From the NCBI GenBank assembly GCA_036744835.1, contig DAIOHD010000001.1, forward strand, positions 611,910 to 675,909: a DNA stretch of 64,000 nucleotides, given 5' to 3'. The DNA is from Candidatus Magasanikiibacteriota bacterium (GTDB lineage: Bacteria > Patescibacteriota > Patescibacteriia > Magasanikbacterales > GWA2-37-8). Below are positions 2,304 through 40,982 of this stretch, one piece after another; the stretch's first letter is position 1, and each line of letters begins with the position of its first letter. Below the pieces are notes generated by a model. That model did no database searches and was not told where the DNA came from. It saw nothing but the letters and a program-made list of their open reading frames with translations. Both the position numbers and the translations under genes were made by a program.

Positions 2304-3026
2304 TTAAAAGCTTTTTTCCGGCTCTTTAACCGGGAAAAAAATAATTCTTATTAATCTGATTATATCAGAAAATATCATAGAAGTCAAAATAAACAAGGCT
2401 TTGACCATTGGTAAGTAATACAAAAAAAGGAAAATAAAAGTTGGAAACAAAAAAAGGAAATAGAGTTCTGATTTTTCCAAATCTTTTCTTTTGAACTCAT
2501 CAATAAAAATAGAAGTAAATAAATAAATTGCACAAACACTTGGCCATATCAAATCTCTTCTTTTACCAATATCAAAACCATAAAAATCTAGATTGACTTT
2601 CCCGGTTAAATTATTTCCTTCATACAAAACATTTATTGTTCTATCCCCAAGCATTCCTCCGACAAAAACTTGGTATAACAAGAATAAAAACAAACCTTGA
2701 ATAAGTAAAGTTGTTACTTTGGCCCAAGGAGATATTCTGTGTTTACGAATTATACGTCTAGCTTCTTCTTTTTGCGCTATGGGGTCATTTTTGAAAGCCC
2801 TCGCCGCTGTAAAGGCTTCTAACTCTATCTTTTTTTGACGATTAACATTCCGTTCAGAAATAATAGATAAAGGCAACAAACAAATACGCAACATGATTGT
2901 CATTACAATAACAGCATAACCCATATTACCTGCGGTAATATTGTTATAAATCCAAACCAACAAATTAAAAACTGGCTGATATAAAAGACTAAACCAAATA
3001 ATAGACATAGGATAACTAATTTTCAA
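2304..3026 (-). CDS. yidC: Membrane protein insertase YidC/Oxa1 family (short form)
   Basis: Multi-TM protein. 'GYAVIVMTIMLRICLLPLSI' matches the YidC conserved TM2 motif (GxAIIxxTIxVRxxLLPL). Size is ~240 aa, as for Gram-positive/CPR-type YidC. Confidence 0.7.
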   Translation of the reverse strand: MKISYPMSIIWFSLLYQPVFNLLVWIYNNITAGNMGYAVIVMTIMLRICLLPLSIISERNVNRQKKIELEAFTAARAFKNDPIAQKEEARRIIRKHRISPWAKVTTLLIQGLFLFLLYQVFVGGMLGDRTINVLYEGNNLTGKVNLDFYGFDIGKRRDLIWPSVCAIYLFTSIFIDEFKRKDLEKSELYFLFLFPTFIFLFLYYLPMVKALFILTSMIFSDIIRLIRIIFFPVKEPEKSF

Positions 3027-3059
3027 TTTTTAATTTAAAATTTTTAATGAATTTATAAT

Positions 3060-3752
3060 TTACAATTTTATAAATTTCATTATATATTCCCTTATTCTTA
3101 GCTGTTCTGCTAAACTATTTTCCAATTCAATCGCCATAAATTCCGGAAAAAATTCTTGCGGATAATTTTTGAGATAATCCATTTCTGATAAATTTTCTAA
3201 AGAGTGGTAATCAAAACGTATTTCTTCGGGTTTTTCTGGGTCATTTTTTGGTTCTTTTTTTATTGCACTCAAATGAGCACAACCAATTTTATGGTTTTCT
3301 ATCATCCTGATTGATTGCTCATAACGCTCAGGAAAAATAATTTTATCATTTTCCAAATGGAAAAAATCTATACAAACTCCGGCATAATCAATCAGCTCAT
3401 CTTCAGGAAAACCCAGATGAGTATTTTCTATATAAATAATATCTTTTTTATATTTATCCCAAGAATATTTAAGTGGATAAAGTCGTTCACTGTGAGTATT
3501 AAAAACTTTGGTTTGATAATTTTCGCGCAACCAAGCAATTTCTTCTTCATCAAAATCACTGCGTAAATGAACAAAAGGAATTCTTTTTAAGTTTGTTTTA
3601 GCAAGCATTTCATACATTTCTTTTCGCTCTTCCTTGTTTAGGCAGGTCAGAAACAAAGCAATTTCTTCTAAATTTAAATTGTCAATTTCTGCGATTTTAT
3701 CTTTCCAGTTTGAACCTTTCGTAGTGGTAATTGTCGGCAAAATAAGCTTCAT
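3060..3752 (-). CDS. Hypothetical protein
   Basis: 230-aa ORF with no confident motif. Contains several His/Asp/Glu clusters. Confidence 0.4.
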   Translation of the reverse strand: MKLILPTITTTKGSNWKDKIAEIDNLNLEEIALFLTCLNKEERKEMYEMLAKTNLKRIPFVHLRSDFDEEEIAWLRENYQTKVFNTHSERLYPLKYSWDKYKKDIIYIENTHLGFPEDELIDYAGVCIDFFHLENDKIIFPERYEQSIRMIENHKIGCAHLSAIKKEPKNDPEKPEEIRFDYHSLENLSEMDYLKNYPQEFFPEFMAIELENSLAEQLRIREYIMKFIKL

Positions 3753-8841: not shown

Positions 8842-8933
8842 AAATAATAAAAATTCTAAGCACTAATTTCTAAACTCTAAACAATTAGAAAATTATAATA
8901 TCAAAAAAACAAACTCTGTTTAGAATTTAAGGT

Positions 8934-9230
8934 TTAGAAATTAGGGTTTTCAAAAATCCCTGGTACCACTAACATGCCTGCATATTTTTCTGGAAATTGC
9001 TCTTTAAGATCTTCAAAATATTTACATTTTTTAATTTCGTCAACCCGCCACACATTTTTCAAATCATTAACTTCCGATGTCGGCTCTACACCTTCGGTAT
9101 CCACTTCATTTAAAATTTTCATATAATCAAACACAACCGAAATAGTTTCGGCGTGTCTTTTTTCTTCCGTCGGAGTCAATTTGATTTTTGCCAAATCAGC
9201 AATTTTTTTTACTTCTTCTAGAGTTAACAT
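8934..9230 (-). CDS. gatC: Glutamyl-tRNA(Gln) amidotransferase subunit C
   Basis: ~98 aa. 'LTLEEVKKIADLAKIKLTPTEEK' is a typical GatC N-terminus. It lies immediately upstream of gatA. Confidence 0.8.
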   Translation of the reverse strand: MLTLEEVKKIADLAKIKLTPTEEKRHAETISVVFDYMKILNEVDTEGVEPTSEVNDLKNVWRVDEIKKCKYFEDLKEQFPEKYAGMLVVPGIFENPNF

Positions 9231-17068: not shown

Positions 17069-20000
17069 TTATAAACCAGGAATCGGTTGATATTGGAATC
17101 TAAAAACTTGTATAACGCAATTTCCACTTTGATTTGCTACAAAACCAACAGGACAAACATTCCATCTTAATTTACAATTAGTAGAACACCAAGAACAGGA
17201 TTGAAATCCTGGTGAAATTTGACATATACTGCCATTGTTAGTTGAATCATCGCATTCTTCACCTTCTTGGTCTTGGACAATACCATCTCCACAATCTGTT
17301 TCCACTGTTGGTGCCCCACCTCCAGATACTACTTCATTAGTACAAAATACAGTGCATCCTTTGCCCAATCCGTTGTCCTTGCCCAAATCACATTGTTCCG
17401 GTCCGTTAATTTTGTTATCACCACAATACCCGCCCGGACCTTTACAGTTCCAAGCGCAAGAATAACCGTTATAAAAAGAATAATCTTGACAAGATTGATC
17501 CTCTATCAATGGTGAAATCACATTATCTAATTCTGAATTATTATCTATATATATAAAATCAGTATTTGCTGCTGTCGCCCACGCATGAAAACTAGGCTTA
17601 TCTTCACCAACACCTAATATATATACTTTTATGCCTTTTAATTTTAAATTGGAAACTGTGTTGGTAACATTAATATCCGTGCCAGTATCACCATCAGTAA
17701 ATAATAATAAATTTACAACACTGTTTGGATTTTTTTGCTGATAATCTTTTAAAACATTATTATAAACATAATTTAATGCTTCTCCTGTTGGAGTACCACT
17801 TTCTGGTTGTAATTCTGCGTTCAATGTTTGATATAATGTATTTTTATCAAAATTACTGTTATTAGTAACATTTATTAAAATATCACAATTGGGATTTTCC
17901 GTGAGAGAGGGATCAAGATAAGTTGTAAAACCAGCTGCACCAACCCTTGTTTTACCATACAATTTATTTAATATTTCTGGTAATTCATCTTTGATTTTTT
18001 TCATTCTTGTTACAGAACTTCCACCTCCGATAGAATAACTCATGCTTCCAGATTCATCAAATAGCATATAAAACAATGGCCTTCTTTCATCATCGTAAAC
18101 AACATCGACACCGTCAAAAATACATTTATTATTCTCCGTATCACAATATTCTCCTTCATCCAACACTCCGTTTCCACAAACTGGATCTGCTACCAATTGA
18201 CAACTTGCACCACAAAAACCCAAACGGCCATTATTTCCATCACCATCATCACATTGTTCTCCTAATTGCACTTGAACTTTTCCATCACCACATCTACCAA
18301 AAGTCGCACAGCTTAAATTACTTACAGTAGAAGTACTCATACAATCACTGGCGCATCTAACTCCGGAATAATTACCTGTCGGGTTGGTTGTACAAGGAGC
18401 TGGGTTACTACTTAAAATTTTATTTGGCGGATCACATTTTTCCTGCTTATTAACATTTACTATGCCATCTCCACAAATACCATCGTTACTGGAGATAACA
18501 CTTGACTCACAAAAAGGTCTAAAAATAAATTTTGCGTTATTTAGACCAAAAGCATTTTTTACATCTGTCCAAATATCTATATCAAGCAGATTGTCATTTT
18601 CTCTATTCATGCGTAGCACATAATCATTTGATACTTCAGATACATAACCATAAGCCATTGAGCCATTGGCACAGGCAAAACTGAACCTTCTATCTTCTGC
18701 ACTCCAACCGGTAATCGGATCATGAAGTTGGCAAACATTTTTATAAAGATTTACTTCATTTACACCTTCGGCCGGACGATACATATAAATCTTATCCATA
18801 AGACCCTTAAGTCCTTGACCAATAATAATATTATCAGCAGAAGTGGCTTCATTGGCTCTATCAGCTGGATTAACCAATGCATGAACACCAGTACTTACAT
18901 TTGGAGATCCTTTACGAACAAAAGAATTACCTACAGATTGGTTATCGACAAACAAAGCCATTCCTTGATCAGAAGCATAATATCTAGCAAGCACGTGGTG
19001 CCATTTATTCAAAGTAAGCGGGGTTTGGAAATCCAAAGCATAATACCAATCCGAACTACTGTTTGGAAATATTGCAAAACGAATTGTGCCGTTTCCTGCT
19101 TTGGCCAAACCACTATTGTCAAAATAAACCTTATTATATTCGATCATAAAACCGCCCAAAGAATGATTTTTTGTCGCATCGTCGGTCCAACCTCCTTGTT
19201 TTATCAAAACCGCGGGTGTTTGCTCTGTTGGTTTAAACCAAAAAGAAATATTAAAACTTCCATTTAAATAATTTGTGCTACTTGAAATTTCTAAATAAGT
19301 ATTATCTCTACCATCAAAGGAAAAGGAGGATCCACTTCCAATACCAGGACCAAAAGTAACATTTCCTCTAGGAGTAGTAGTAACTTTTCTAACAGAGGCA
19401 TCCAAAAAATTATTTTCTGCATCCCATTGGCCAATTTTTGTAGCATCTGTAAAATTAATATCACTACAATCATCATCTTTTACACAAGTTTTGCCGATTT
19501 CTTTTAAACAAGTCCCGGCAGAACCCAGCTTATTTACAGGATCAGAGGGTAAAGAAATACCAAGTTTACTACCAAATTCACTCCATGAATTTGGCCAAAT
19601 ACTAAAAGCTCTGTTAGCCAAAAAGGTATTGTTTACCATGATCGGATATTTATTATCATTTTTTGTCTTATATTCTTCTATAGCTGCTTTTATCATTCTC
19701 GCATCTTGTAATCTCTGATAATTTCTTTGTATTTTTTCTTTTTGATTTATACAAAGTGGTTTGAGAGGATCAACACAGTCTAAATCTGTATTACACAAAC
19801 TTCCTGAATCTGTATCTAACCAATAACCCGCACAAGATTTTCTACTATAAATGGGGTTAAAATTATAATTAAATTTCAAATTAGTTAATATTTGATCAAA
19901 GACATTTTTGGTTTCTGTTCTGGCGTAAGCACTCAAACTAAATGAATATATATTTGAATAAACACTTGTTGACACATTTAAGGCCGCAACATAAACATTG

Positions 20001-23000
20001 TTTCCGGTTGCATCTACAGCCGCTTCGTAACCGTCTATTTTCAAACTACTAAAAGTGGCATAGGGAAATTTATAATTTAACCACTCTTTTAACGAAAGGT
20101 ATGCGGTGTTGCTAGCTATTTTTATACCTATGGCATCAGCGTTTTTATCATTGGTCAAAAGATAATATTTCAAAATATCAGATTCATTTGTCGAAGTAAC
20201 CACGGGTTTCATATATGGCAAATCATCATTTTTACCTATTATTCCAGAATCAGCACAATAAAACGTACTAAAATTACTATAGAGATCCTGGATATTTTTT
20301 ACCCCATTAAAACCAGTTTCTGTAATTTCCGGATTATAACTAAAATCAAAATAATCAGTGTTGTTTGCACTATCATCAAACGGCCAAACTTTTGTATCGT
20401 CTTTTTTACTAACTTCAAAAGGCGGCCAGGGATTTTCACATAAAAACACGGTAACATGGCTTTTGCCAATTACTTTTTTATCTGTTGGGTCAGTAGTAGA
20501 AACAGTAACGAAAACATCACCATCACCATTTTGATTACGAGGAGCAACATTTGAAGTATTTACTGTTGATTGAGTATCGACAGTAAAGGCATTACTTTGG
20601 TCTTTGCTCCAAACATAACTCCAATTATATCCTAAAGTCGGTTGAATTTGTTGGTTATTTTCTATTGCTTTCACCAAAGCTACAAAATCCGTGGAAGTAT
20701 TAATTTTGGTAAATAATTCTTCAACTGGAATAACTTCAGCCGAACCTACTTTACAGACACTATTCTCCCCCCAAGTAGTAAAGGTAATAACTTCTTTTTC
20801 AATACTAACGCCTCTTTGGTCTTTTATTCCTTCACGTAAAACAATTTTATAAGTGGTCGTGTTTCCTTTGAGAGCATTTGTCAATTTAAATTTGAGTTCA
20901 AAAGGAAATTCTTCGTTTTGGGGATTGTAAAAAATATTTGGAATACCCATAACTTCACCGGTACACCATCTGGCCGTAACTTTTTCAATACCAAATATTT
21001 TCTGAAACAAATCAATTGCCACAGACCATATTTTTTTATACCAAGGCATGTTTTCTATATCAATATAAGACAGAATATCAGAAGTAATATCATTGGAAGT
21101 TGTGCAGAAAGAATCGTCTGAACCATATTCTCTGGCAATCAGAAAATTACCCTGCAAAGTTTTAACATCTATCGGGCTATCAAAAGAAATTTTGATTTCC
21201 GTATTTGGACAAACTCCTTCATCTTCGTTATCAGGATAAGTCGGAAAGCCTATTGTTGGTTTAGTATAACAACAAGAATTAGAACCGACTCCATAGCCAA
21301 CACCAGCTCTAGATTGACATTCGGCATCAGTTTTATAACCGCAAATCAAATTAAATTGTGCAAAGCCTGTTTTACTACTATCTCTGGCTTGACTGGTAAT
21401 GTTAGTTGTTTGTTTTACATCAGTAGAGCTATAACTTAAACCAACTGCTTCAGCTAAAACCCATGGAGAAGTAGAAGGACTAGAAACAAAATCATAAAAA
21501 TCCCCGACTTCACAATTATAATCTTCCTCCGTATCATAAATTTTATCTCCGCAAAAAGAAGGGGTTGTATTTTCCAATGAAGATCCTTTTTTTGTTCTGT
21601 TTAAATATAAACAATTATCATTACAAACTCCTTCGGCACAATTATCTTTATCTTCGTCTGGTTCTGAAATACCATTACCACACTGAGAAATAGAGTTAAT
21701 ACAGGCTGATTCAAATTGTTTTTTATAATCTTTATAAATTCCAGTATGAAATTGGGCATAATTATCCTTGCACCATTTAGAACTAAGAGATGTGCCGGTG
21801 TGCAAACATTCGGAAGAGCAATTTAAACTGGAAGACACTATTAACGGATTTGGCGGAGTATTTTTAATACCCAAATCACAATCTTCTTCCGAACCTACAT
21901 TGCCATCACCGCAATAAATACAGTTCTTTTCCTTGGTTATCGAATCAATTGTACAACTTCCTGTTTTTTTAGTTTTAGATAAACAATTTATCGTGCAATC
22001 ACTATTGAAAGGATTTTTTTCGACAGCAAATATATTCCAACAACCACCAAAACAAACCTCTGTTATTTTGCCTATTTCACAATCTTCTCCGGCTTCAACA
22101 ACCCCGTTACCGCACATTGGAACTTTATAATTATAAGTGCTGGAAGCTATTGTACTGCCCCTTTTTAAACATTTATCATCGCAAAAAGGATTAAATCCTT
22201 TTTTGGTAAATGTTTGTATAGCCGCTACATTTGCATTTCCTGTTGTCCAAAGCCAATTAAACAAATTTGAATTTAATTGTTGCCCTTTGGAACTACACTC
22301 ATCTGGAGCAGAAAACGCAAGTCCACCAAAAATAGTACGCTCTCCTATGTTATAAGCATTGTAAATACTAGGAACAACAGTCACTCTATCCACTTCACAA
22401 ATTTTATCTTTGGTGCCAAATATCCAGGTTTTGCTTTTAGAATACGGTTGTCCTCTAAGCGAAGAATTTGTTGAAGAAGCGATAGTAAATAACGTCCCGG
22501 AATTTACTCTTACCAAATAATAAGTATTAGTAACTAGACTAGCCCCTGTAATTCTAAACATCCTTTGTAAAGAGCTACCGGTAGTATCAACTAGATAATA
22601 TCCAATACTTGAAGTAGCTGTACAATTGGAATTTTCACATTTTTCCAAAGTTATTGCTTGTGACTCGATATTACTAGACATTTGTTTATCAAATTTGATA
22701 AAAATATCAGCATTAGGACAAGCAGTTAAACATTTAGGACCCCAATCTATTATTTCCGGGTTACTTAAGTCTATAGTCAATCTACTACTACCTATAATAC
22801 TCAAACTATTACCTCCTGTTGAAGTAGAAACTTCACTATAAATATACAGACTATCGGTTGGCGCTTGAAGTCCGACAGCAAAAGTGTTCTTTAAAGCACT
22901 TGCTACGGTAGTTGAAATAGCTGTATCAGAATCTTTACTGACTTCCGGAACATCCGCATAATCTCCTCTTTGCGAGGACCATTCAAAATTATAGCCATTT

Positions 23001-26000
23001 AAATTCATTGCTGTACATTTCTGGCTCGCCAAACCCATGGCATTATAATTTAAAATTGCAGTGGTATTTTCATCTAAATTTCTCGGATTTACTCTTTTTT
23101 TAATAGGATTCTCCAAAACTCCAGTCCAAAAAGTATTTGGGGTAACAGAAACTCCTTTGAGTATACATTGATTATTCCCCGTTTCAAAAACGAAACAATA
23201 AGCGGTGTTAGCAAGACCATTTGTGGTATCGTCGCAAGGCGATGTTTTTTTCAAATTTTGAAAACGCCCGTTTTCATCATCCGGTGTTTTAATACCGTTT
23301 TTCAAAATAACTTGGTAAAAAGAATTGGAATCCCAGTTATTTGTTCCAAGCAGTGAAAAAGTAATCAAAGATTGACTTTCTGCAAGTTCTCCGAGGGATG
23401 GGGTAGTGATGCTAACTGAATTTCCTATTTCTTTACAAAATTTTTCACCAAAAGCCGGCCCCTGACTACATTTGTACAATAAAACATTTCCCGCCAAAGA
23501 AGCTGCATTAATTTGAGTACTAAAACCTATAGTTACTAGAGAATTAAGACAAGTTTTTTCTCCCCATTTGATGTTTGGAGCTGGGGTTGGGGTTATACAT
23601 GGTGTGCCGTTTTCCAAACAATCTAAATTTTCATCACATTGTGTCAAAACCTCAGGAGCCCTGGGGAAATCGTCTGTGGTAAAACGCCACATATAACCGG
23701 TAGAACGAGTTTCTCCTAAACACAGTTCATCAACCGAACGACAAACACCTTTTTCTTTTCCTCCAGAACAACACTTTTCTCCACTGCCGCATGCTTGACC
23801 AGTCTTAGTACAATCTTTGACTTCAAAACTAAGCGGATTGCTAAATAAATTCGATGTACCTGCTATTCTATCCAAAACAACTTCTCCACTCATAGCATCT
23901 GGCGGAACAAAACAAGTCGCTTGTTGTCCCCCTCTAATAGAAGCCAGTGTTTCTATGGTTGTCGAAGCTCTATTTGTAAAATTATTAGCAACCGCACCGT
24001 TTTTCCAGAAATAAACTTTTAAATCCTCTTTATTATTACCAAAATTTTCACCATAAATACTCACACCAGAATTTATTGGCCCACTTTTAGGATCAATTTT
24101 ACAAATACCTGGTTTAGGAGTGGGATTGTTTAAATAAAAAGAAATTCCTTGTTGTAAAATACTTGATTGACCCTTACTGTTGAACACCACCACTACATAG
24201 TTTTCTCCAATTGTCGGAGATATTCCAACACTACCCGCATTTTGTGGAATTTTTACTATTATTTTTTTATCAGACCACACATCATTCAAACATTCATCCA
24301 TAAAATCAAAACTCCCTTCAAAATATTGATTATTATTAGCCAAAGTCGTGACCGGTTTTTCGTAAAATCTAACTTTACCTCTTTGAGAACCAAAGTTACT
24401 ACCAACAATAGTCACGTATTCCCCTTTTGCACCTTCATCCGGAGTAATATTATCTACTATCGGTGCGGTTTTATCAAAAGTATTAACTAATCTAACTCTT
24501 AAAGAATTGCTCATTTTACCCCCAGCCAAAACAGCGGTTGTAACCAGTCCGTCATCAACTCGTGGAGATTGAGTTTCTATACTATTCCAAACACCAGTTG
24601 AACCCCAGGTATTTATTGACATCAGCAACTTATCTTCTTCGGCATTTGATATATTTAAATAAACCTTATCAGCACCATTTGTATAAGTACCAAAATTTTT
24701 ACCTGTATAATTAATATTATTTTGAAAAGAAGAAAACTGACTAGGGTTTACCATGCATAATGAAGGTCGATTTGCTAAAGCACTGTCATATTTAAAACGC
24801 AATTTATTACTATAAATATCGGAAAGCGGATTAGAACTTTCACCTATAGTATTGGCTACAAAACCATTACCTGAAACCATAATGGAGGAACCTTCCTGGC
24901 CCGGATAAAAACCTTCTGGGACTTCCACCACTATTTGATTATTAAACCAATTTTTAGTATCTGTACCGCAAGTTACAATAGTTGAAGAAACCCATTGGTT
25001 TTGGTCGGTTAGTGAGTTTGGTGAAGCAACTTTACTAAACCAAACAGATCCCAGGGTTGTACCAAAATTTTCACCAAAAATAGCCATAAAATTTTTTGGA
25101 GCCCCTGAACTCGGATCTATCCCCAAAATACGCATCACTCTGGTACATCTTCCGTCTATACATAAACTACCTCCACCGCATTGATAATTATAAGTACAAA
25201 CACTACCTGGACAAGCCCCACAAATATTTGGATCTCCACAGGCGGGAGGGCCAACTTCTTCTTCACCTGGATCAAGAACGGTATTGAAACAGTGTTGAGG
25301 AAATAATCTTACATCTAAACTATCTGTTCCGAGTTGAGCGGCTTGATCTCGACCCTCGGCTACCAAAGTATATTGCTGTCCCTCTTTCAAGGATGCTGTT
25401 GGCCAAACAATTTTTGTAGAAACTTGTTTTTGACATCCATCAAAAGATTGACTACCAACAAGATTTCCAGCTACATACAGAGAAATATTTTGAACTGCTA
25501 TGTCATCACTGGCTTCAATAAAAATTTCCGGAGAATCTCCTTTGCCCACACTCCCAGGATCTTGCATAGTAATTTCCGGTGGATTTCTATCAACTCCGTC
25601 ACCAGTAATAAATGAAATATCAGCACATTTATCTTCGCTATTTTGTGTTGACTGACAAATTAATTTTTTACCGTTGACGCTTTCAATATTACGATCAGCA
25701 TTAGTAAAATCAATAGTATAAGCTGTATTTTTTTCAAAACAATCACTAGGGCCCCGATCTCCACAATCTCCAGTAGCTGAAAAAATTATCGCTTGCCCAC
25801 CACTCTCTGATGACCAAGTACCGGATACTAAATTTCCGTTTGAATCTAAAATTCTAATTCTAGCAGCTCTGTTTTCCAACTCATTTACAGTGTCTAAATT
25901 AACTGGATAATTAAAAGTAATGACAGGATGATAATTGGCTACACAGAGTTGACCACCAAGAGGTCTACTCCTAATGGTAAAGTAACTTCCTCCGCCATAA

Positions 26001-26431
26001 GGGTTAAAAATATCACCGCTTCCCCCGCTACCACCACCGCCACCTTCGTAACCAGTGGCATCACTTAAACTCTTTATAATAAAACTAGTAATAGCGTACG
26101 AACTCAAAATAATAACCAAACCGATAACACCGTTGAGTAAAATCTTTTTGGCAGTGACGATTCTATTTTCATCTCCTCCGGCCGTCATCCACATAAAACC
26201 ACCCCAAAGAACTATTACCAAAGCAACCATTCCCAAAAGTCCCAACGCGACACGAATGATATTGGCGATAGTTATACGTATGTCTTGAGAACCAAGTCCT
26301 GTTTGAGCGCCATATTCCAAACCCAGCGTTGAAGTAGTGATAGGTGTTTGGGCAAATACATAACTAAAAAACGAAAAAATACCCATTGAAAGCAAGGTGA
26401 AAAATAAAGATTTTAAAAATATTTTTTTCAT
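17069..26431 (-). CDS. Giant (3120 aa) secreted/surface protein: N-terminal VirB2/TrbC-pilin-like two-helix membrane domain, multiple IPT/TIG-like domains, LamG-like domain, vWA domain, Cys-rich CGDG/CDDG repeats
   Basis: Signal-like N-terminus, then 'LGMVALVIVLWGGFMWMTAGGDENRIVTAKKILLNGVIGLVIILSSY'. IPT-like 'GIDPSSGAPKNFMAIFGENFG', 'ITPDEGAKGEYVTIVGSNFG', 'IDPKSGPINSGVSIYGENFG'. LamG-like '...ISFWFKPTEQ...WHHVLARYY...'. vWA MIDAS 'LFDESGSMSYS...TRMKKIKDE...LLFTDGDTG'. C-terminal repeats 'CGDGKVQVQLGEQCDDGDGNNG', 'CGNGVLDEGEYCD', 'CGDGIVQDQEGEECDD'. Confidence 0.8.
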   Translation of the reverse strand: MKKIFLKSLFFTLLSMGIFSFFSYVFAQTPITTSTLGLEYGAQTGLGSQDIRITIANIIRVALGLLGMVALVIVLWGGFMWMTAGGDENRIVTAKKILLNGVIGLVIILSSYAITSFIIKSLSDATGYEGGGGGSGGSGDIFNPYGGGSYFTIRSRPLGGQLCVANYHPVITFNYPVNLDTVNELENRAARIRILDSNGNLVSGTWSSESGGQAIIFSATGDCGDRGPSDCFEKNTAYTIDFTNADRNIESVNGKKLICQSTQNSEDKCADISFITGDGVDRNPPEITMQDPGSVGKGDSPEIFIEASDDIAVQNISLYVAGNLVGSQSFDGCQKQVSTKIVWPTASLKEGQQYTLVAEGRDQAAQLGTDSLDVRLFPQHCFNTVLDPGEEEVGPPACGDPNICGACPGSVCTYNYQCGGGSLCIDGRCTRVMRILGIDPSSGAPKNFMAIFGENFGTTLGSVWFSKVASPNSLTDQNQWVSSTIVTCGTDTKNWFNNQIVVEVPEGFYPGQEGSSIMVSGNGFVANTIGESSNPLSDIYSNKLRFKYDSALANRPSLCMVNPSQFSSFQNNINYTGKNFGTYTNGADKVYLNISNAEEDKLLMSINTWGSTGVWNSIETQSPRVDDGLVTTAVLAGGKMSNSLRVRLVNTFDKTAPIVDNITPDEGAKGEYVTIVGSNFGSQRGKVRFYEKPVTTLANNNQYFEGSFDFMDECLNDVWSDKKIIVKIPQNAGSVGISPTIGENYVVVVFNSKGQSSILQQGISFYLNNPTPKPGICKIDPKSGPINSGVSIYGENFGNNKEDLKVYFWKNGAVANNFTNRASTTIETLASIRGGQQATCFVPPDAMSGEVVLDRIAGTSNLFSNPLSFEVKDCTKTGQACGSGEKCCSGGKEKGVCRSVDELCLGETRSTGYMWRFTTDDFPRAPEVLTQCDENLDCLENGTPCITPTPAPNIKWGEKTCLNSLVTIGFSTQINAASLAGNVLLYKCSQGPAFGEKFCKEIGNSVSITTPSLGELAESQSLITFSLLGTNNWDSNSFYQVILKNGIKTPDDENGRFQNLKKTSPCDDTTNGLANTAYCFVFETGNNQCILKGVSVTPNTFWTGVLENPIKKRVNPRNLDENTTAILNYNAMGLASQKCTAMNLNGYNFEWSSQRGDYADVPEVSKDSDTAISTTVASALKNTFAVGLQAPTDSLYIYSEVSTSTGGNSLSIIGSSRLTIDLSNPEIIDWGPKCLTACPNADIFIKFDKQMSSNIESQAITLEKCENSNCTATSSIGYYLVDTTGSSLQRMFRITGASLVTNTYYLVRVNSGTLFTIASSTNSSLRGQPYSKSKTWIFGTKDKICEVDRVTVVPSIYNAYNIGERTIFGGLAFSAPDECSSKGQQLNSNLFNWLWTTGNANVAAIQTFTKKGFNPFCDDKCLKRGSTIASSTYNYKVPMCGNGVVEAGEDCEIGKITEVCFGGCWNIFAVEKNPFNSDCTINCLSKTKKTGSCTIDSITKEKNCIYCGDGNVGSEEDCDLGIKNTPPNPLIVSSSLNCSSECLHTGTSLSSKWCKDNYAQFHTGIYKDYKKQFESACINSISQCGNGISEPDEDKDNCAEGVCNDNCLYLNRTKKGSSLENTTPSFCGDKIYDTEEDYNCEVGDFYDFVSSPSTSPWVLAEAVGLSYSSTDVKQTTNITSQARDSSKTGFAQFNLICGYKTDAECQSRAGVGYGVGSNSCCYTKPTIGFPTYPDNEDEGVCPNTEIKISFDSPIDVKTLQGNFLIAREYGSDDSFCTTSNDITSDILSYIDIENMPWYKKIWSVAIDLFQKIFGIEKVTARWCTGEVMGIPNIFYNPQNEEFPFELKFKLTNALKGNTTTYKIVLREGIKDQRGVSIEKEVITFTTWGENSVCKVGSAEVIPVEELFTKINTSTDFVALVKAIENNQQIQPTLGYNWSYVWSKDQSNAFTVDTQSTVNTSNVAPRNQNGDGDVFVTVSTTDPTDKKVIGKSHVTVFLCENPWPPFEVSKKDDTKVWPFDDSANNTDYFDFSYNPEITETGFNGVKNIQDLYSNFSTFYCADSGIIGKNDDLPYMKPVVTSTNESDILKYYLLTNDKNADAIGIKIASNTAYLSLKEWLNYKFPYATFSSLKIDGYEAAVDATGNNVYVAALNVSTSVYSNIYSFSLSAYARTETKNVFDQILTNLKFNYNFNPIYSRKSCAGYWLDTDSGSLCNTDLDCVDPLKPLCINQKEKIQRNYQRLQDARMIKAAIEEYKTKNDNKYPIMVNNTFLANRAFSIWPNSWSEFGSKLGISLPSDPVNKLGSAGTCLKEIGKTCVKDDDCSDINFTDATKIGQWDAENNFLDASVRKVTTTPRGNVTFGPGIGSGSSFSFDGRDNTYLEISSSTNYLNGSFNISFWFKPTEQTPAVLIKQGGWTDDATKNHSLGGFMIEYNKVYFDNSGLAKAGNGTIRFAIFPNSSSDWYYALDFQTPLTLNKWHHVLARYYASDQGMALFVDNQSVGNSFVRKGSPNVSTGVHALVNPADRANEATSADNIIIGQGLKGLMDKIYMYRPAEGVNEVNLYKNVCQLHDPITGWSAEDRRFSFACANGSMAYGYVSEVSNDYVLRMNRENDNLLDIDIWTDVKNAFGLNNAKFIFRPFCESSVISSNDGICGDGIVNVNKQEKCDPPNKILSSNPAPCTTNPTGNYSGVRCASDCMSTSTVSNLSCATFGRCGDGKVQVQLGEQCDDGDGNNGRLGFCGASCQLVADPVCGNGVLDEGEYCDTENNKCIFDGVDVVYDDERRPLFYMLFDESGSMSYSIGGGSSVTRMKKIKDELPEILNKLYGKTRVGAAGFTTYLDPSLTENPNCDILINVTNNSNFDKNTLYQTLNAELQPESGTPTGEALNYVYNNVLKDYQQKNPNSVVNLLLFTDGDTGTDINVTNTVSNLKLKGIKVYILGVGEDKPSFHAWATAANTDFIYIDNNSELDNVISPLIEDQSCQDYSFYNGYSCAWNCKGPGGYCGDNKINGPEQCDLGKDNGLGKGCTVFCTNEVVSGGGAPTVETDCGDGIVQDQEGEECDDSTNNGSICQISPGFQSCSWCSTNCKLRWNVCPVGFVANQSGNCVIQVFRFQYQPIPGL

Positions 26432-32393: not shown

Positions 32394-32505
32394 ATTTTTA
32401 TTGTTAACTTAGTATAACAGAATATAATTAAAAATCAAAAAAAAACCGCCTTGAAAAGCGATTTCGTGAGACGCTAAACATACCGATTACAATGCTTAAG
32501 CGTTG

Positions 32506-32579
32506 TGGGTCCAAGAGGAGTCGAACCTCTGACCTCTACAATGTCAATGTAGCGCTCTAACCAACTGAGCTATGAACCC
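32506..32579 (-). tRNA. tRNA-Val (anticodon GAC)
   Basis: Revcomp folds to acceptor GGGTTCA/TGGACCC, anticodon stem CTACA/TGTAG with loop TTGACAT, and T-arm AGAGG-TTCGACT-CCTCT. Confidence 0.85.
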
Positions 32580-32593
32580 GAGTTTATATATTG

Positions 32594-32667
32594 TGGGCGA
32601 CGGAGGAATCGAACCTCCGACCTCGTCATTATCAGTGACGCGCTCTAACCATCTGAGCTAGTCGCCC
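32594..32667 (-). tRNA. tRNA-Ile (anticodon GAT)
   Basis: Revcomp 'GGGCGACTAGCTCAGATGGTTAGAGCGCGTCACTGATAATGACGAGGTCGGAGGTTCGATTCCTCCGTCGCCCA' has anticodon loop CTGATAA. It sits in the 16S-downstream spacer. Confidence 0.85.
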
Positions 32668-32850
32668 TTTATTTTAAAGTTTCTCCAAAATTATATTACA
32701 AAAAATATTTTTTGGCAAGAGGTTCTACCTTACAAAAACACCCGTTCCGCTGAGCGGGACGGGTGTCTTCTAGTTGACATTACAAAAGTGGTAGGAATAA
32801 CATCCCTGTCGACGAAGATATATTTTTACTTTCATAAAAATCAATCTCCA

Positions 32851-34372
<1,522 letters not shown>

Positions 34373-34922
34373 AAAAAAAGAGTGTTAATCCATTCCAGTA
34401 TGAATACTGAAAAATTGGATTTACTAAAATTATTTTATAGAATAGATTTCGATAATAAATTATCGAAAACTTCAGTGGATGTTTTCTTACCACATTTGTA
34501 TTGTCAACGTACTTTCTTCCTAAAATTTTTAGAAAGAAAAAAGAGAAACCCAAAAATTGAAGTTGCTCTTTTCTCTTTCCAGTATCCATCTTGACAGGAC
34601 TTAGAAGATTGTTAAATTGTAGAGTTGCGTTTTTGCCTTTATTTGGGTTAATTTTTGTAAGAGAAATATAACAATTATTTAGCTTATTGTCAAGGAAGCC
34701 ATCTGTGGATAACTCCCTGTTTATTATACAAACAATTTTGGCTTATTCTAGGAGAATTTTAACAACCAACTAAAAATTACAAATTCAAAATTATAAGCTC
34801 CAAATAAATCCCAAATAATTAAAATTTAAAATACCAAACTCCTGTGTTTTGTTTTGAATTTTATATTTTGGATTTAGTGTTTATTTAGGGTTTGTAATTT
34901 TGAATTTGTAATTTAATATTTT

Positions 34923-35624
34923 TTATTTTTGCTTTTTCTTACGCCAATTTTCAATCAAAGCATGATTACCAGAAAGTAATATTTTTGGTACTTTTAAACC
35001 CATAAAATTTTCCGGTCTGGTGTATTGTGGATACTCACTTGAAATTTTTAATTTAGAATTTTTAATTTTTAATTTGTTATGAGTTTCCTCCTTTAGAGAT
35101 TCTGCATTACCCAATACTCCAGGAATCAAACGTGACACTGCTTCAATAATAGTAAGCGCCGGTAATTCTCCTCCGGCCAAAACATAATCCCCGACAGAAA
35201 TTTTTTCATCAATAAATTTATAAATACGTTCATCAAACCCTTCGTAACGTCCACAAACAAAAACTAGACGGTTATATTTTTTGGCAAATTTTTCCGCCAT
35301 TTTTTGATCAAACTTTTTTCCCGCTGGATCCATCGCGAGAATTTTTAATTTAGAATTTTTAATTTTCAATTTCTTCCCCTTAGAATCTACAACCCCAAGT
35401 TTTTTTAAACAATCAAAAATAGGCTGGACTTGTAATACCATCCCCGGTCCCCCGCCATAAGGACTATCATCTACATGATTTCTTTTATCCAAAGTATAAT
35501 CACGAAAATTATGTGGTGCAACTTCAATCAAGCCCTTAGCTTCCGCTTTGCCTAAAATACTTTTATTACAGTAGTCGTTAATTATCTCTGGAAAGATGGT
35601 TAGGATTTCGAACTTCATAAACAA
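34923..35624 (-). CDS. trmD: tRNA (guanine37-N1)-methyltransferase TrmD, with two in-frame 10-aa 'LKIKNSKLKI' insertions
   Basis: 'FEILTIFPE...YGGGPGMVL...GDYVLAGGELPALTIIEAVSRLIPGVLGN' are TrmD core motifs. The insertions align to loop regions. Confidence 0.9.
   Translation of the reverse strand: MFMKFEILTIFPEIINDYCNKSILGKAEAKGLIEVAPHNFRDYTLDKRNHVDDSPYGGGPGMVLQVQPIFDCLKKLGVVDSKGKKLKIKNSKLKILAMDPAGKKFDQKMAEKFAKKYNRLVFVCGRYEGFDERIYKFIDEKISVGDYVLAGGELPALTIIEAVSRLIPGVLGNAESLKEETHNKLKIKNSKLKISSEYPQYTRPENFMGLKVPKILLSGNHALIENWRKKKQK
35043..35075. repeat. 33-nt AT-rich repeat copy A (inside trmD)
   Basis: AATTTTTAATTTAGAATTTTTAATTTTTAATTT. It differs at one position from the copy at 35340-35372. 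Confidence 0.8.
35340..35372. repeat. 33-nt AT-rich repeat copy B (inside trmD)
   Basis: AATTTTTAATTTAGAATTTTTAATTTTCAATTT. Both copies are in frame and encode LKIKNSKLKI. Confidence 0.8.
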
Positions 35625-35735
35625 TCAATATTAAAAATATTCGGATATTACGATATTGCGATATTTATTATTGGTTAATAGCATAATATCATAATATCTT
35701 AATATTACAAATGGTCTAAAAACAAAACTACTCCG

Positions 35736-35772
35736 CCCTTGTAAAAGTTGCGGAGTAGTTGAGTTGTTTATT
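35736..35772 (-). terminator. Rho-independent terminator downstream of the KH-domain gene
   Basis: The minus strand reads CAACTCAACTACTCCGC-loop-GCGGAGTAGTTTTGTTTTT: a 9-10-bp GC-containing stem followed by a T-tract. Confidence 0.55.
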
Positions 35773-40850: not shown

Positions 40851-40865
40851 AATTGATGATATAAT

Positions 40866-40951
40866 ATGTATATTATGTAGTATGTATTATGTATTAAGTA
40901 TCATGTATACATGGGTTACTACATAATTCATACTACATACTACATAATACA
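40866..40951. repeat. Long imperfect inverted repeat of TATGTA/TACATA units between nrnA and clpP
   Basis: Left arm TATTATGTAGTATGTATTATGTA (40871-40893). Right arm TACATAATTCATACTACATACTACATAATAC (40919-40950), near-perfect revcomp. Centre at CATGTATACATG. Confidence 0.7.
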
Positions 40952-40982
40952 AAATGCTTTATATAAAAATAAATTAAAAAAT

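Follow-up and report, generated by a model that had tools for sequence, protein, structure and literature searches.

How does a tandem repeat whose unit is not a multiple of three nucleotides come to lie, in frame, within an essential gene? Non-triplet tandem repeats are usually held to be excluded from coding DNA. In the stretch analyzed here, 64,000 nucleotides (nt) from a Candidatus Magasanikiibacteriota bacterium (Patescibacteriota; contig DAIOHD010000001.1, positions 611,910 to 675,909; hereafter the window), a 7-nt repeat is found twice in trmD, the gene of the tRNA m1G37 methyltransferase, and it recurs in core genes elsewhere. We think it probable that these two 33-nt cassettes are near-neutral simple-sequence arrays of mixed slippage and recombination origin, which are translated and reside in permissive loops of the enzyme.

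The open reading frame (ORF) at 34923..35624 on the minus strand comprises 233 residues counted from a TTG at 35624, with its stop at 34923-34925; by homology the real start is likely the ATG at 35618 (MKFEIL...). Its assignment to TrmD is based on homologues in PF01746, on PDB TrmD chains that match at E 1e-55, and on an AlphaFold2 (AF2) model that matches TrmD structures with a Foldseek probability of 1.0. The invariant motifs of SPOUT/TrmD proteins are present in the knot loops MDPAG, GRYEGFDER and GDYVLAGGE. Its closest named relatives belong to Candidatus Magasanikbacteria and other Patescibacteria, and the gene order smc - rpsP - KH-domain - trmD - 16S rRNA is a conserved arrangement. 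Neither an RNA family nor a tRNA was found to overlap the trmD locus, and inspection of the cassettes revealed no in-frame slippery motif of the X_XXY_YYZ type that would indicate frameshifting.

Within this gene, the site 1 cassette AAATTGAAAATTAAAAATTCTAAATTAAAAATT (35340..35372, minus strand) encodes residues K85-I95 between ...DSKGK and LAMDPAG, and the site 2 cassette AAATTAAAAATTAAAAATTCTAAATTAAAAATT (35043..35075, minus strand) encodes residues K184-I194 between ...ETHN and SSEYPQYTRP. Both are in frame and read KLKIKNSKLKI. They are identical at 32 of 33 positions, the sole difference being a synonymous TTA/TTG exchange in a leucine codon. A preliminary description of the window had reported this pair, and its positions and single-base difference are borne out by the sequence; the inserted peptide, given there as 10 residues, is 11 residues long, and the repeat structure set out below was absent from that account. 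Could such similarity arise by accident? Their 27-nt core has exactly two matches in the window (35043 and 35340) and none in 100 shuffles, and two independent back-translations of KLKIKNSKLKI under the codon usage of the window would differ by at most 1 nt with a chance of about 0.004. The two 33-mers are thus alike at the DNA level, beyond convergence of the peptide, and their identity is explained neither by chance nor by codon bias.

Tandem Repeats Finder resolves each copy into a period-7 array of 4.7 units with 80-84% matches. On the coding strand the cassette reads AAATTRA, AAATTAA, AAATTCT, AAATTAA and a final AAATT, so that the unit can be written as AAATTRA. Since 7 equals 1 modulo 3, three units form one cycle of 21 nt and 7 residues. 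An (AAAAATT)n or (GAAAATT)n array, if pure, consequently translates as K-L-K-I-K/E-N-stop whichever sense frame is used. The window copies both have AAATTCT as their third unit. This unit replaces the TAA stop by a TCT serine codon, and it is this exchange in one unit that lets the copies survive within an essential gene. The cassette is a heptanucleotide simple-sequence array made of head-to-tail copies of one unit. It lacks a hairpin (minimum free energy, MFE, of -0.2 kcal/mol, z +1.6), and on this ground a hairpin element was rejected as its identity. Terminal inverted repeats are missing from the window cassettes, and neither a target-site duplication nor a shared flank was found at the two copies or in 32 other contexts in which the cassette occurs. 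Scans of the 64-kb window with the core, with up to 9/33 mismatches and with the motif found no third copy, and the motif scan detected no other in-frame repeat-derived insert in its approximately 55 genes.

Where do the arrays lie in the protein? In the alignment to TrmD of S. aureus (3ky7), gaps of 11 and 9 residues fall exactly at sites 1 and 2, respectively. Site 1 belongs to the loop before the strand LKILAMDPAG, which it partly forms and which enters the first knot and S-adenosylmethionine (SAM)-binding loop; the AF2 model has predicted local distance difference test (pLDDT) values of about 74-88 here and places the strand from L93 onward. In α/β folds, such an insert would stick out where the strand has its N-terminal end. 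Site 2 follows ...KEETH by a few residues and belongs to the flexible linker joining the N- and C-terminal domains, where the pLDDT is below 50 over residues 179-203. The preliminary description had expected loops distal to the SPOUT knot. This expectation does not hold for site 1, which is adjacent to the knot in sequence and whose last residues open the strand that leads on to the MDPAG loop of the knot; site 2 lies in the disordered interdomain linker. Judged from alignment and model, both sites appear to be permissive loops and the two most length-tolerant segments of TrmD. In TrmD-tRNA structures, the linker that holds site 2 contacts tRNA.

A comparison of 120 TrmD homologues illustrates how variable these segments are, with lengths of 23-67 residues at site 1 and 19-58 residues at site 2. 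The shortest proteins, at 213-218 residues, are those free of inserts (for example, P0085, P0088 and P0036). The preliminary description had suggested an alignment of orthologues to see whether the insertions are lineage-specific. An ancestral duplication within the gene is ruled out by the insert-free relatives, together with the presence of the cassette at a third site of TrmD and in genes unrelated to it. Of the homologues, 18 have the motif K[LS]KI[KE]NxK[LS]KI at site 1, nine have it at site 2 and four at both. Other heptamers occupy the same positions, such as (AAAATCT)n encoding KSKIKNLKSKI, (AAAAGTC)4 encoding SQKSKVKSQK, and (GGAAATT)n encoding KLEIGNWKLEI. Codons follow the heptamer even when they are rare, as exemplified by the CTA leucine codon in the (AAAATCT)n array at site 1 of P0005. 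Repeats of other kinds are observed as well: a whole hairpin with heptamer-periodic arms at site 2 of P0028 (z -3.7), GC palindromes of 18-21 nt nested within the arrays of P0007 (CCTTGCCTACCGGTAGGCAGG, z -3.5) and P0018, and repeat-derived peptides of the types SLRGA...RNDK, IPAKAGIQ...GNDK and GLRTTDYRRQ....

Can we tell how old the window copies are? At the DNA level, the site 1 33-mer has orthologues in P0002 and P0007, and the site 2 33-mer has one in P0005, 1 nt apart. The site 2 cassette is also orthologous in P0004, and in P0013 and P0015, where it was recognized by protein, it is broken by a nested hairpin insert. Since each copy has orthologues at the same position in relatives, both predate this genome and neither is recent. 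The orthologous copies, whose length is unchanged, differ as little as the two paralogous copies of the window, so that slow change alone could have kept the latter alike. Among TrmDs of at least 80% identity there are at least eight unrelated alleles at site 2, and the alleles of both sites are reassorted on a neighbor-joining tree of 190 columns, a tree too weak to date gains or losses that serves only to show this reassortment. Such a pattern points to recombination or repeated gain. In one clear case, P0019 (NQLKITAE) against its sister P0009 (NQSKIKNLKSKILAE), site 2 shows a difference of +21 nt, equal to three copies of the heptamer resident at this position: a local expansion of a slippage-like kind rather than transposition. 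Other allele differences are replacements or nested insertions and not steps in unit number. A second lineage, represented by P0026, likewise carries similar composite repeats at both sites.

The cassette is not restricted to sites 1 and 2. In another TrmD lineage (L138 2403-3125, L141, L146), the 33-mer lies at a third site in the C-terminal domain, where KLKIKNSKLKI stands between YTRPE-xI and LKVP.... Beyond TrmD, one genome per species was scanned with the variant dinucleotide left free, so that pure arrays match too. Among the matches listed, arrays of (GAAAATT)n and of (AAAAATT)n are widespread in Bacteroidota, cyanobacteria, Patescibacteria and other groups, where most lie between genes and many have an inverted partner, and all sense copies within long ORFs carry a stop-removing variant with a Leu, Cys, Tyr, Trp or Ser codon. 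In-frame copies make up 13 of the 18 Patescibacteria loci and one of the 101 other loci in this set (p 1.5e-12). A metagenome scan for the TCT variant of the window returned 28 loci, nearly all of them in frame. According to Pfam, the hosts include ArgRS, enolase, MurD, LepA, RecG, RecR, TsaD, a MiaB-like enzyme and a SAM methyltransferase; glycosyltransferases and membrane proteins were also found. This spread over many unrelated protein genes is seen across many genomes, not within one. Taken together, the sequences suggest that in-frame heptamer cassettes form a class that is common in housekeeping genes of Patescibacteria and includes those of trmD. Such cassettes appear to accompany 7-nt-periodic hairpins and small GC palindromes in the same kinds of loops.

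TsaD provides the most crowded example. On a contig with 52-57% GC, a single tsaD gene (L143 2554-3672 / L148 1120-2232) holds heptamer arrays at five separate places, built from four types of unit: two of (AATTTCC)4, an AAATCCT/AAATTCT array, a KLKIENSKLKI cassette and (AGTCAAG)4. No heptamer array was found in the 7 kb neighboring this gene, and the same loops are hypervariable in its relatives. The proteins at L021, L050 and L143 also include peptides of the type NFQFSI(L/F)NFQ, which result when G-type arrays are read on the opposite strand ((AATTTTC)n, with every frame open) and share these proteins with the sense cassette. In three Bacillota metagenome-assembled genomes (MAGs; L044, L047 and L118), each (AAAAATT)n array is followed by a similar sequence of about 35 nt, GTGGTA..GCACT.G.....CTCGTGC.., which suggests a composite repeat family of those genomes. 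A scan of viral sequences matched mostly giant-virus MAGs with only pure non-coding arrays; phages as vectors of the cassettes were rejected on that basis.

Related DNA also lies between genes of the window, as the preliminary description had noticed for some AT-rich units. Apart from the two copies, the only places within 9/33 mismatches of the cassette are 3011-3082 and the arms of a hairpin (34760-34806 and 34875-34935); shuffles give zero to three such places. The former (3011..3082, minus strand) is a degenerate AAATTNN array between two minus-strand genes and does not form a hairpin (z -0.4). The latter is a long imperfect hairpin (34774..34914, minus strand) that begins directly after the trmD stop. 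Its 43-nt arms are 84% complementary and periodic in AAATTNN, its MFE of -40 kcal/mol (z -4.3) is equaled in none of 200 shuffles, and its A-rich arm differs from the cassettes at 6-9 of 33 positions. Between this hairpin and the 16S rRNA gene there is a promoter-like site (TTGACA-17-TATATT with TG extension; 34665..34693, minus strand), which would place the hairpin as an end-of-trmD element upstream of an rRNA promoter. Another hairpin, just upstream of trmD (35636..35712, minus strand; z -3.9), has 8-nt-periodic arms (GATATTNC / TAATATCN). Further intergenic hairpins with tandem 7- or 8-nt arms were noted at 40860-40965 (plus strand, z -3.1) and 8845-8955 (minus strand, z -2.9); these two and the one at 35636-35712 are each built from a different unit. 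Seven is the over-represented long period in the window. Hairpins with periodic arms, including the one after trmD, look like a recurrent intergenic architecture of this genome.

How could such arrays have entered and stayed in trmD? We propose that they would arise by heptamer-biased slippage or template switching, supplemented by insertion or recombination of pre-formed arrays, and that selection would pass only stop-free multiples of 3 nt. In the permissive loops they could then persist as nearly neutral sequence under the weak selection of small-genome symbionts. The 32/33 identity of the window copies may reflect one array type that evolves slowly, possibly aided by conversion across 297 nt. 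A dedicated function would not be required, and the added lysines may mildly improve tRNA binding. The cassettes are probably translated and not removed from RNA, since every intragenic copy is strictly in frame and stop-free, which would be needless if the RNA were processed; insertions in rRNA of the Candidate Phyla Radiation, by comparison, are removed by RNA processing.

Several points weigh against near-neutral arrays of this kind as a sufficient account. Translation of the cassette is something that we infer rather than observe. AT-rich arrays in a TsaD of 52-57% GC cannot plausibly have grown locally, so some cassettes would arrive as inserted or recombined DNA. Pure expansion would cross a lethal in-frame stop, so in situ slippage is not the whole story, and the TCT variant, which requires two steps, is common to both window copies. 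The cassettes also have an element-like look, with sharp edges and ordinary coding DNA as flanks in 32 distinct contexts. Finally, the clustering of arrays within single genes, trmD here and tsaD elsewhere, exceeds what tolerance alone explains. The arrival of pre-formed, already stop-free arrays must contribute, whether through illegitimate recombination, through conversion or on a tiny mobile element.

How far can the last of these be taken? The preliminary description had proposed a small mobile or recombinogenic element able to insert in frame into an essential gene without inactivating it. The second half of this proposal agrees with our data, as the inserts are in frame and stop-free here and the cassette recurs in 32 other contexts. 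In a rival reading of this kind, a non-autonomous element of about 33-35 nt, comparable to Rickettsia palindromic elements or the small dispersed repeats of cyanobacteria, would have entered each of the two TrmD sites and many other genes in independent insertions, and selection would have kept only those that are in frame and stop-free. This would account for identical 33-mers with sharp edges in 32 unrelated coding contexts, GC-rich hosts included, for the third insertion site in another TrmD lineage, for the GC palindromes nested in the arrays of P0007 and P0018, and for the reassortment of site alleles among close relatives. What remains of the proposal is the dispersed in-frame repeat DNA; the marks of an element are missing, as the cassette has no hairpin, inverted termini or target duplication and no further copy within 64 kb. 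Many different heptamer units at the same sites speak against a master sequence, and the length change relative to insert-free orthologues varies (+5, +7, +8, +9 and +11 residues) instead of being fixed at 11. The apparent fixed length of 33-36 nt is at least partly an artifact, because the search pattern requires 33 nt and an array that exceeds about 41 nt would meet an in-frame stop for the second time. Moreover, the one documented event (P0019/P0009) is a local three-unit expansion, and such arrays are shared with very distant phyla and with giant viruses. We consider independent insertion of such an element rather unlikely.

Selection on the peptide is less plausible still. The 11-mer might be an amphipathic, lysine-rich β-hairpin (KLKIK-NS-KLKI) recruited for nucleic-acid binding or a Patescibacteria-specific interaction, with the DNA repeat as a by-product. 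Many hosts are indeed nucleic-acid enzymes (TrmD, TsaD, ArgRS, LepA, RecG, RecR and the MiaB-like enzyme), lysines and hydrophobic residues alternate, the final KLKI often replaces the start of a native β-strand, and site 2 presumably lies where TrmD contacts tRNA. Yet glycosyltransferases, enolase and membrane proteins are hosts too, AF2 assigns no confident structure to site 2, and the opposite-strand reading (NFQFSI...) of the same arrays is also present in these proteins. Peptide-level selection is also unlikely because close relatives swap the cassette for unrelated sequences or nothing, and because codon choice follows the heptamer rather than the peptide; we regard the module as improbable. 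The lowest probability is given to a recent intragenic copy, in which one site would be old and the other made in this genome by duplication or gene conversion. The 32/33 identity including the unusual TCT unit, the spacing of the direct repeats by just 297 nt, and the similar composite repeats at both sites of the P0026 lineage would suit it. The orthologues at the same positions, 1 nt apart (P0002/P0007 for site 1; P0005 and P0013/P0015 for site 2), make both copies older than the genome, and with orthologous differences as small as the paralogous one slow evolution suffices, which leaves a recent copy very improbable.

Are there precedents for such DNA? The Rickettsia palindromic elements (RPEs), which Ogata et al. 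are said to have described in 2000, are reportedly families of 100-150 bp palindromes with conserved sequence. They resemble the trmD cassettes as repeat DNA that keeps the reading frame of essential genes in a bacterium with a reduced genome and is tolerated in surface segments, in many unrelated genes. The trmD cassette differs in being 33 nt long, non-palindromic and a tandem heptamer array without a conserved long element; hairpin-type inserts nearer to RPEs occur in TrmDs of relatives, not in the window. RPEs are mentioned in PMC10969869 and PMC1779305. The small dispersed repeats (SDR) of Nostoc, which Elhai et al. reportedly described in 2008, are said to be 21-27 nt long, mobile-looking, far smaller than MITEs (transposable elements of miniature size with inverted repeats), and often nested in repeats or hairpins. 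As a lead only, these repeats, which are cited in PMC3116915, bring to mind the GC palindromes of 18-21 nt that sit within arrays of relatives. They stem from another phylum and have other sequences, and the window cassette is devoid of a stem-loop core. Contingency loci are long unstable arrays that switch dispensable surface genes on and off. Such phase-variable loci share non-triplet tandem repeats within ORFs with trmD, whose arrays are instead short (4.7 units), stable among relatives and located in an essential gene.

Closer in unit size are the heptanucleotides, which are in excess among prokaryotic long simple repeats and for which an origin by slippage has been proposed (Mrazek 2007, in the summary given by PMC4679880). 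They are described there as confined to non-coding DNA, since 7 is not a multiple of 3. Cyanobacterial short tandemly repeated repetitive (STRR) sequences and the TAACTGA repeats (MacGregor 2015, PMC4679880) are tandem 7-nt units found in scattered phyla, mostly intergenic and often beside start or stop codons, and pure arrays put stops in every frame. The cassettes described here differ from these simple sequence repeats (SSRs) as short in-frame arrays in housekeeping genes, with a stop-removing unit and, among the matches listed, almost only in Patescibacteria. The Lys/Asn-rich low-complexity inserts of AT-rich genomes such as Plasmodium falciparum (compare PMC3140889) are likewise loop insertions in conserved enzymes, derived from slippage-prone AT-biased DNA and held to be near-neutral. 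Those inserts are irregular or homopolymeric and eukaryotic, in contrast to the strict 7-nt DNA period and 7-residue peptide period seen here, in GC-rich hosts too. The literature searched, the coverage of which was partial, yielded no account of heptamer cassettes that lie in frame in Patescibacteria genes, so their novelty is unproven.

The surroundings of trmD offered some observations of their own. On the minus strand at 35718-35768, 3' of the KH-domain gene, a GC-rich stem ACTACTCCGC...GCGGAGTAGT followed by TTTTGTTTTT looks like a candidate intrinsic terminator, which would make trmD its own transcription unit; it was not called by the terminator scanner, and its loop exceeds 8 nt. In the relatives L121 (5838-9995) and L122 (7932-9990), a radical SAM/SPASM gene and several small ORFs separate the KH gene from trmD, an arrangement that resembles a cassette for ribosomally synthesized and post-translationally modified peptides (RiPP-like). 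The window holds only about 150 nt at this spot, which would thus also be a hot spot for insertion at the gene level. In another relative (L123), a protein of 1301 residues with fn3 domains is inserted immediately upstream of trmD. ORFs for GIY-YIG endonucleases lie about 2.4 kb downstream of trmD, in or beside the rRNA region, in L121 (13132-13392) and L123 (13170-13460); the window is without them. Its own rRNA region (32505-34378, minus strand) comprises a full-length 16S rRNA without insertion (32852-34378), then tRNA-Ile(GAT), tRNA-Val(GAC) and a protein gene, and as no 23S rRNA follows, the rRNA genes appear unlinked here. Elsewhere on the minus strand of the window there are an ORF of 3120 residues (17069-26431) and a full-length match to the Rfam LOOT RNA family (RF03000; 54129-54250, 83 bits).

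What does this mean for the Patescibacteria? The wider pattern, a Patescibacteria-specific habit of in-frame 7-nt arrays with loops of TrmD and TsaD as traps, outweighs the single locus in interest. It is conceivable, though we hold it doubtful, that these bacteria harbor an active process, not yet known, that writes 7-nt-periodic arrays and small palindromes across the genome, including in frame in essential genes, be it through mobile elements that are tiny and non-autonomous or through an activity, of repair or of a polymerase, that is dedicated to it. KLKI[K/E]NxKLKI would then occur in dozens of housekeeping enzymes for this reason, the TrmD and TsaD loops would serve as recording traps, and the trmD cassettes would be footprints of that process rather than of ordinary slippage. 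If the pattern is general, the heptamer arrays would offer a cheap sequence signature of a mutational or mobile process peculiar to Patescibacteria. They would also account for odd low-complexity stretches (KLKIKN..., NFQFSI..., LPTGRQ..., SLRGA...RNDK) that inflate or confuse annotation and alignments. Naturally permissive insertion sites would be identified in TsaD and in TrmD, which we judge to be an antibiotic target from the many inhibitor complexes among its structure matches. In addition, the arrays would serve as nature's own test of the amount of junk that an essential enzyme can bear under weak selection.

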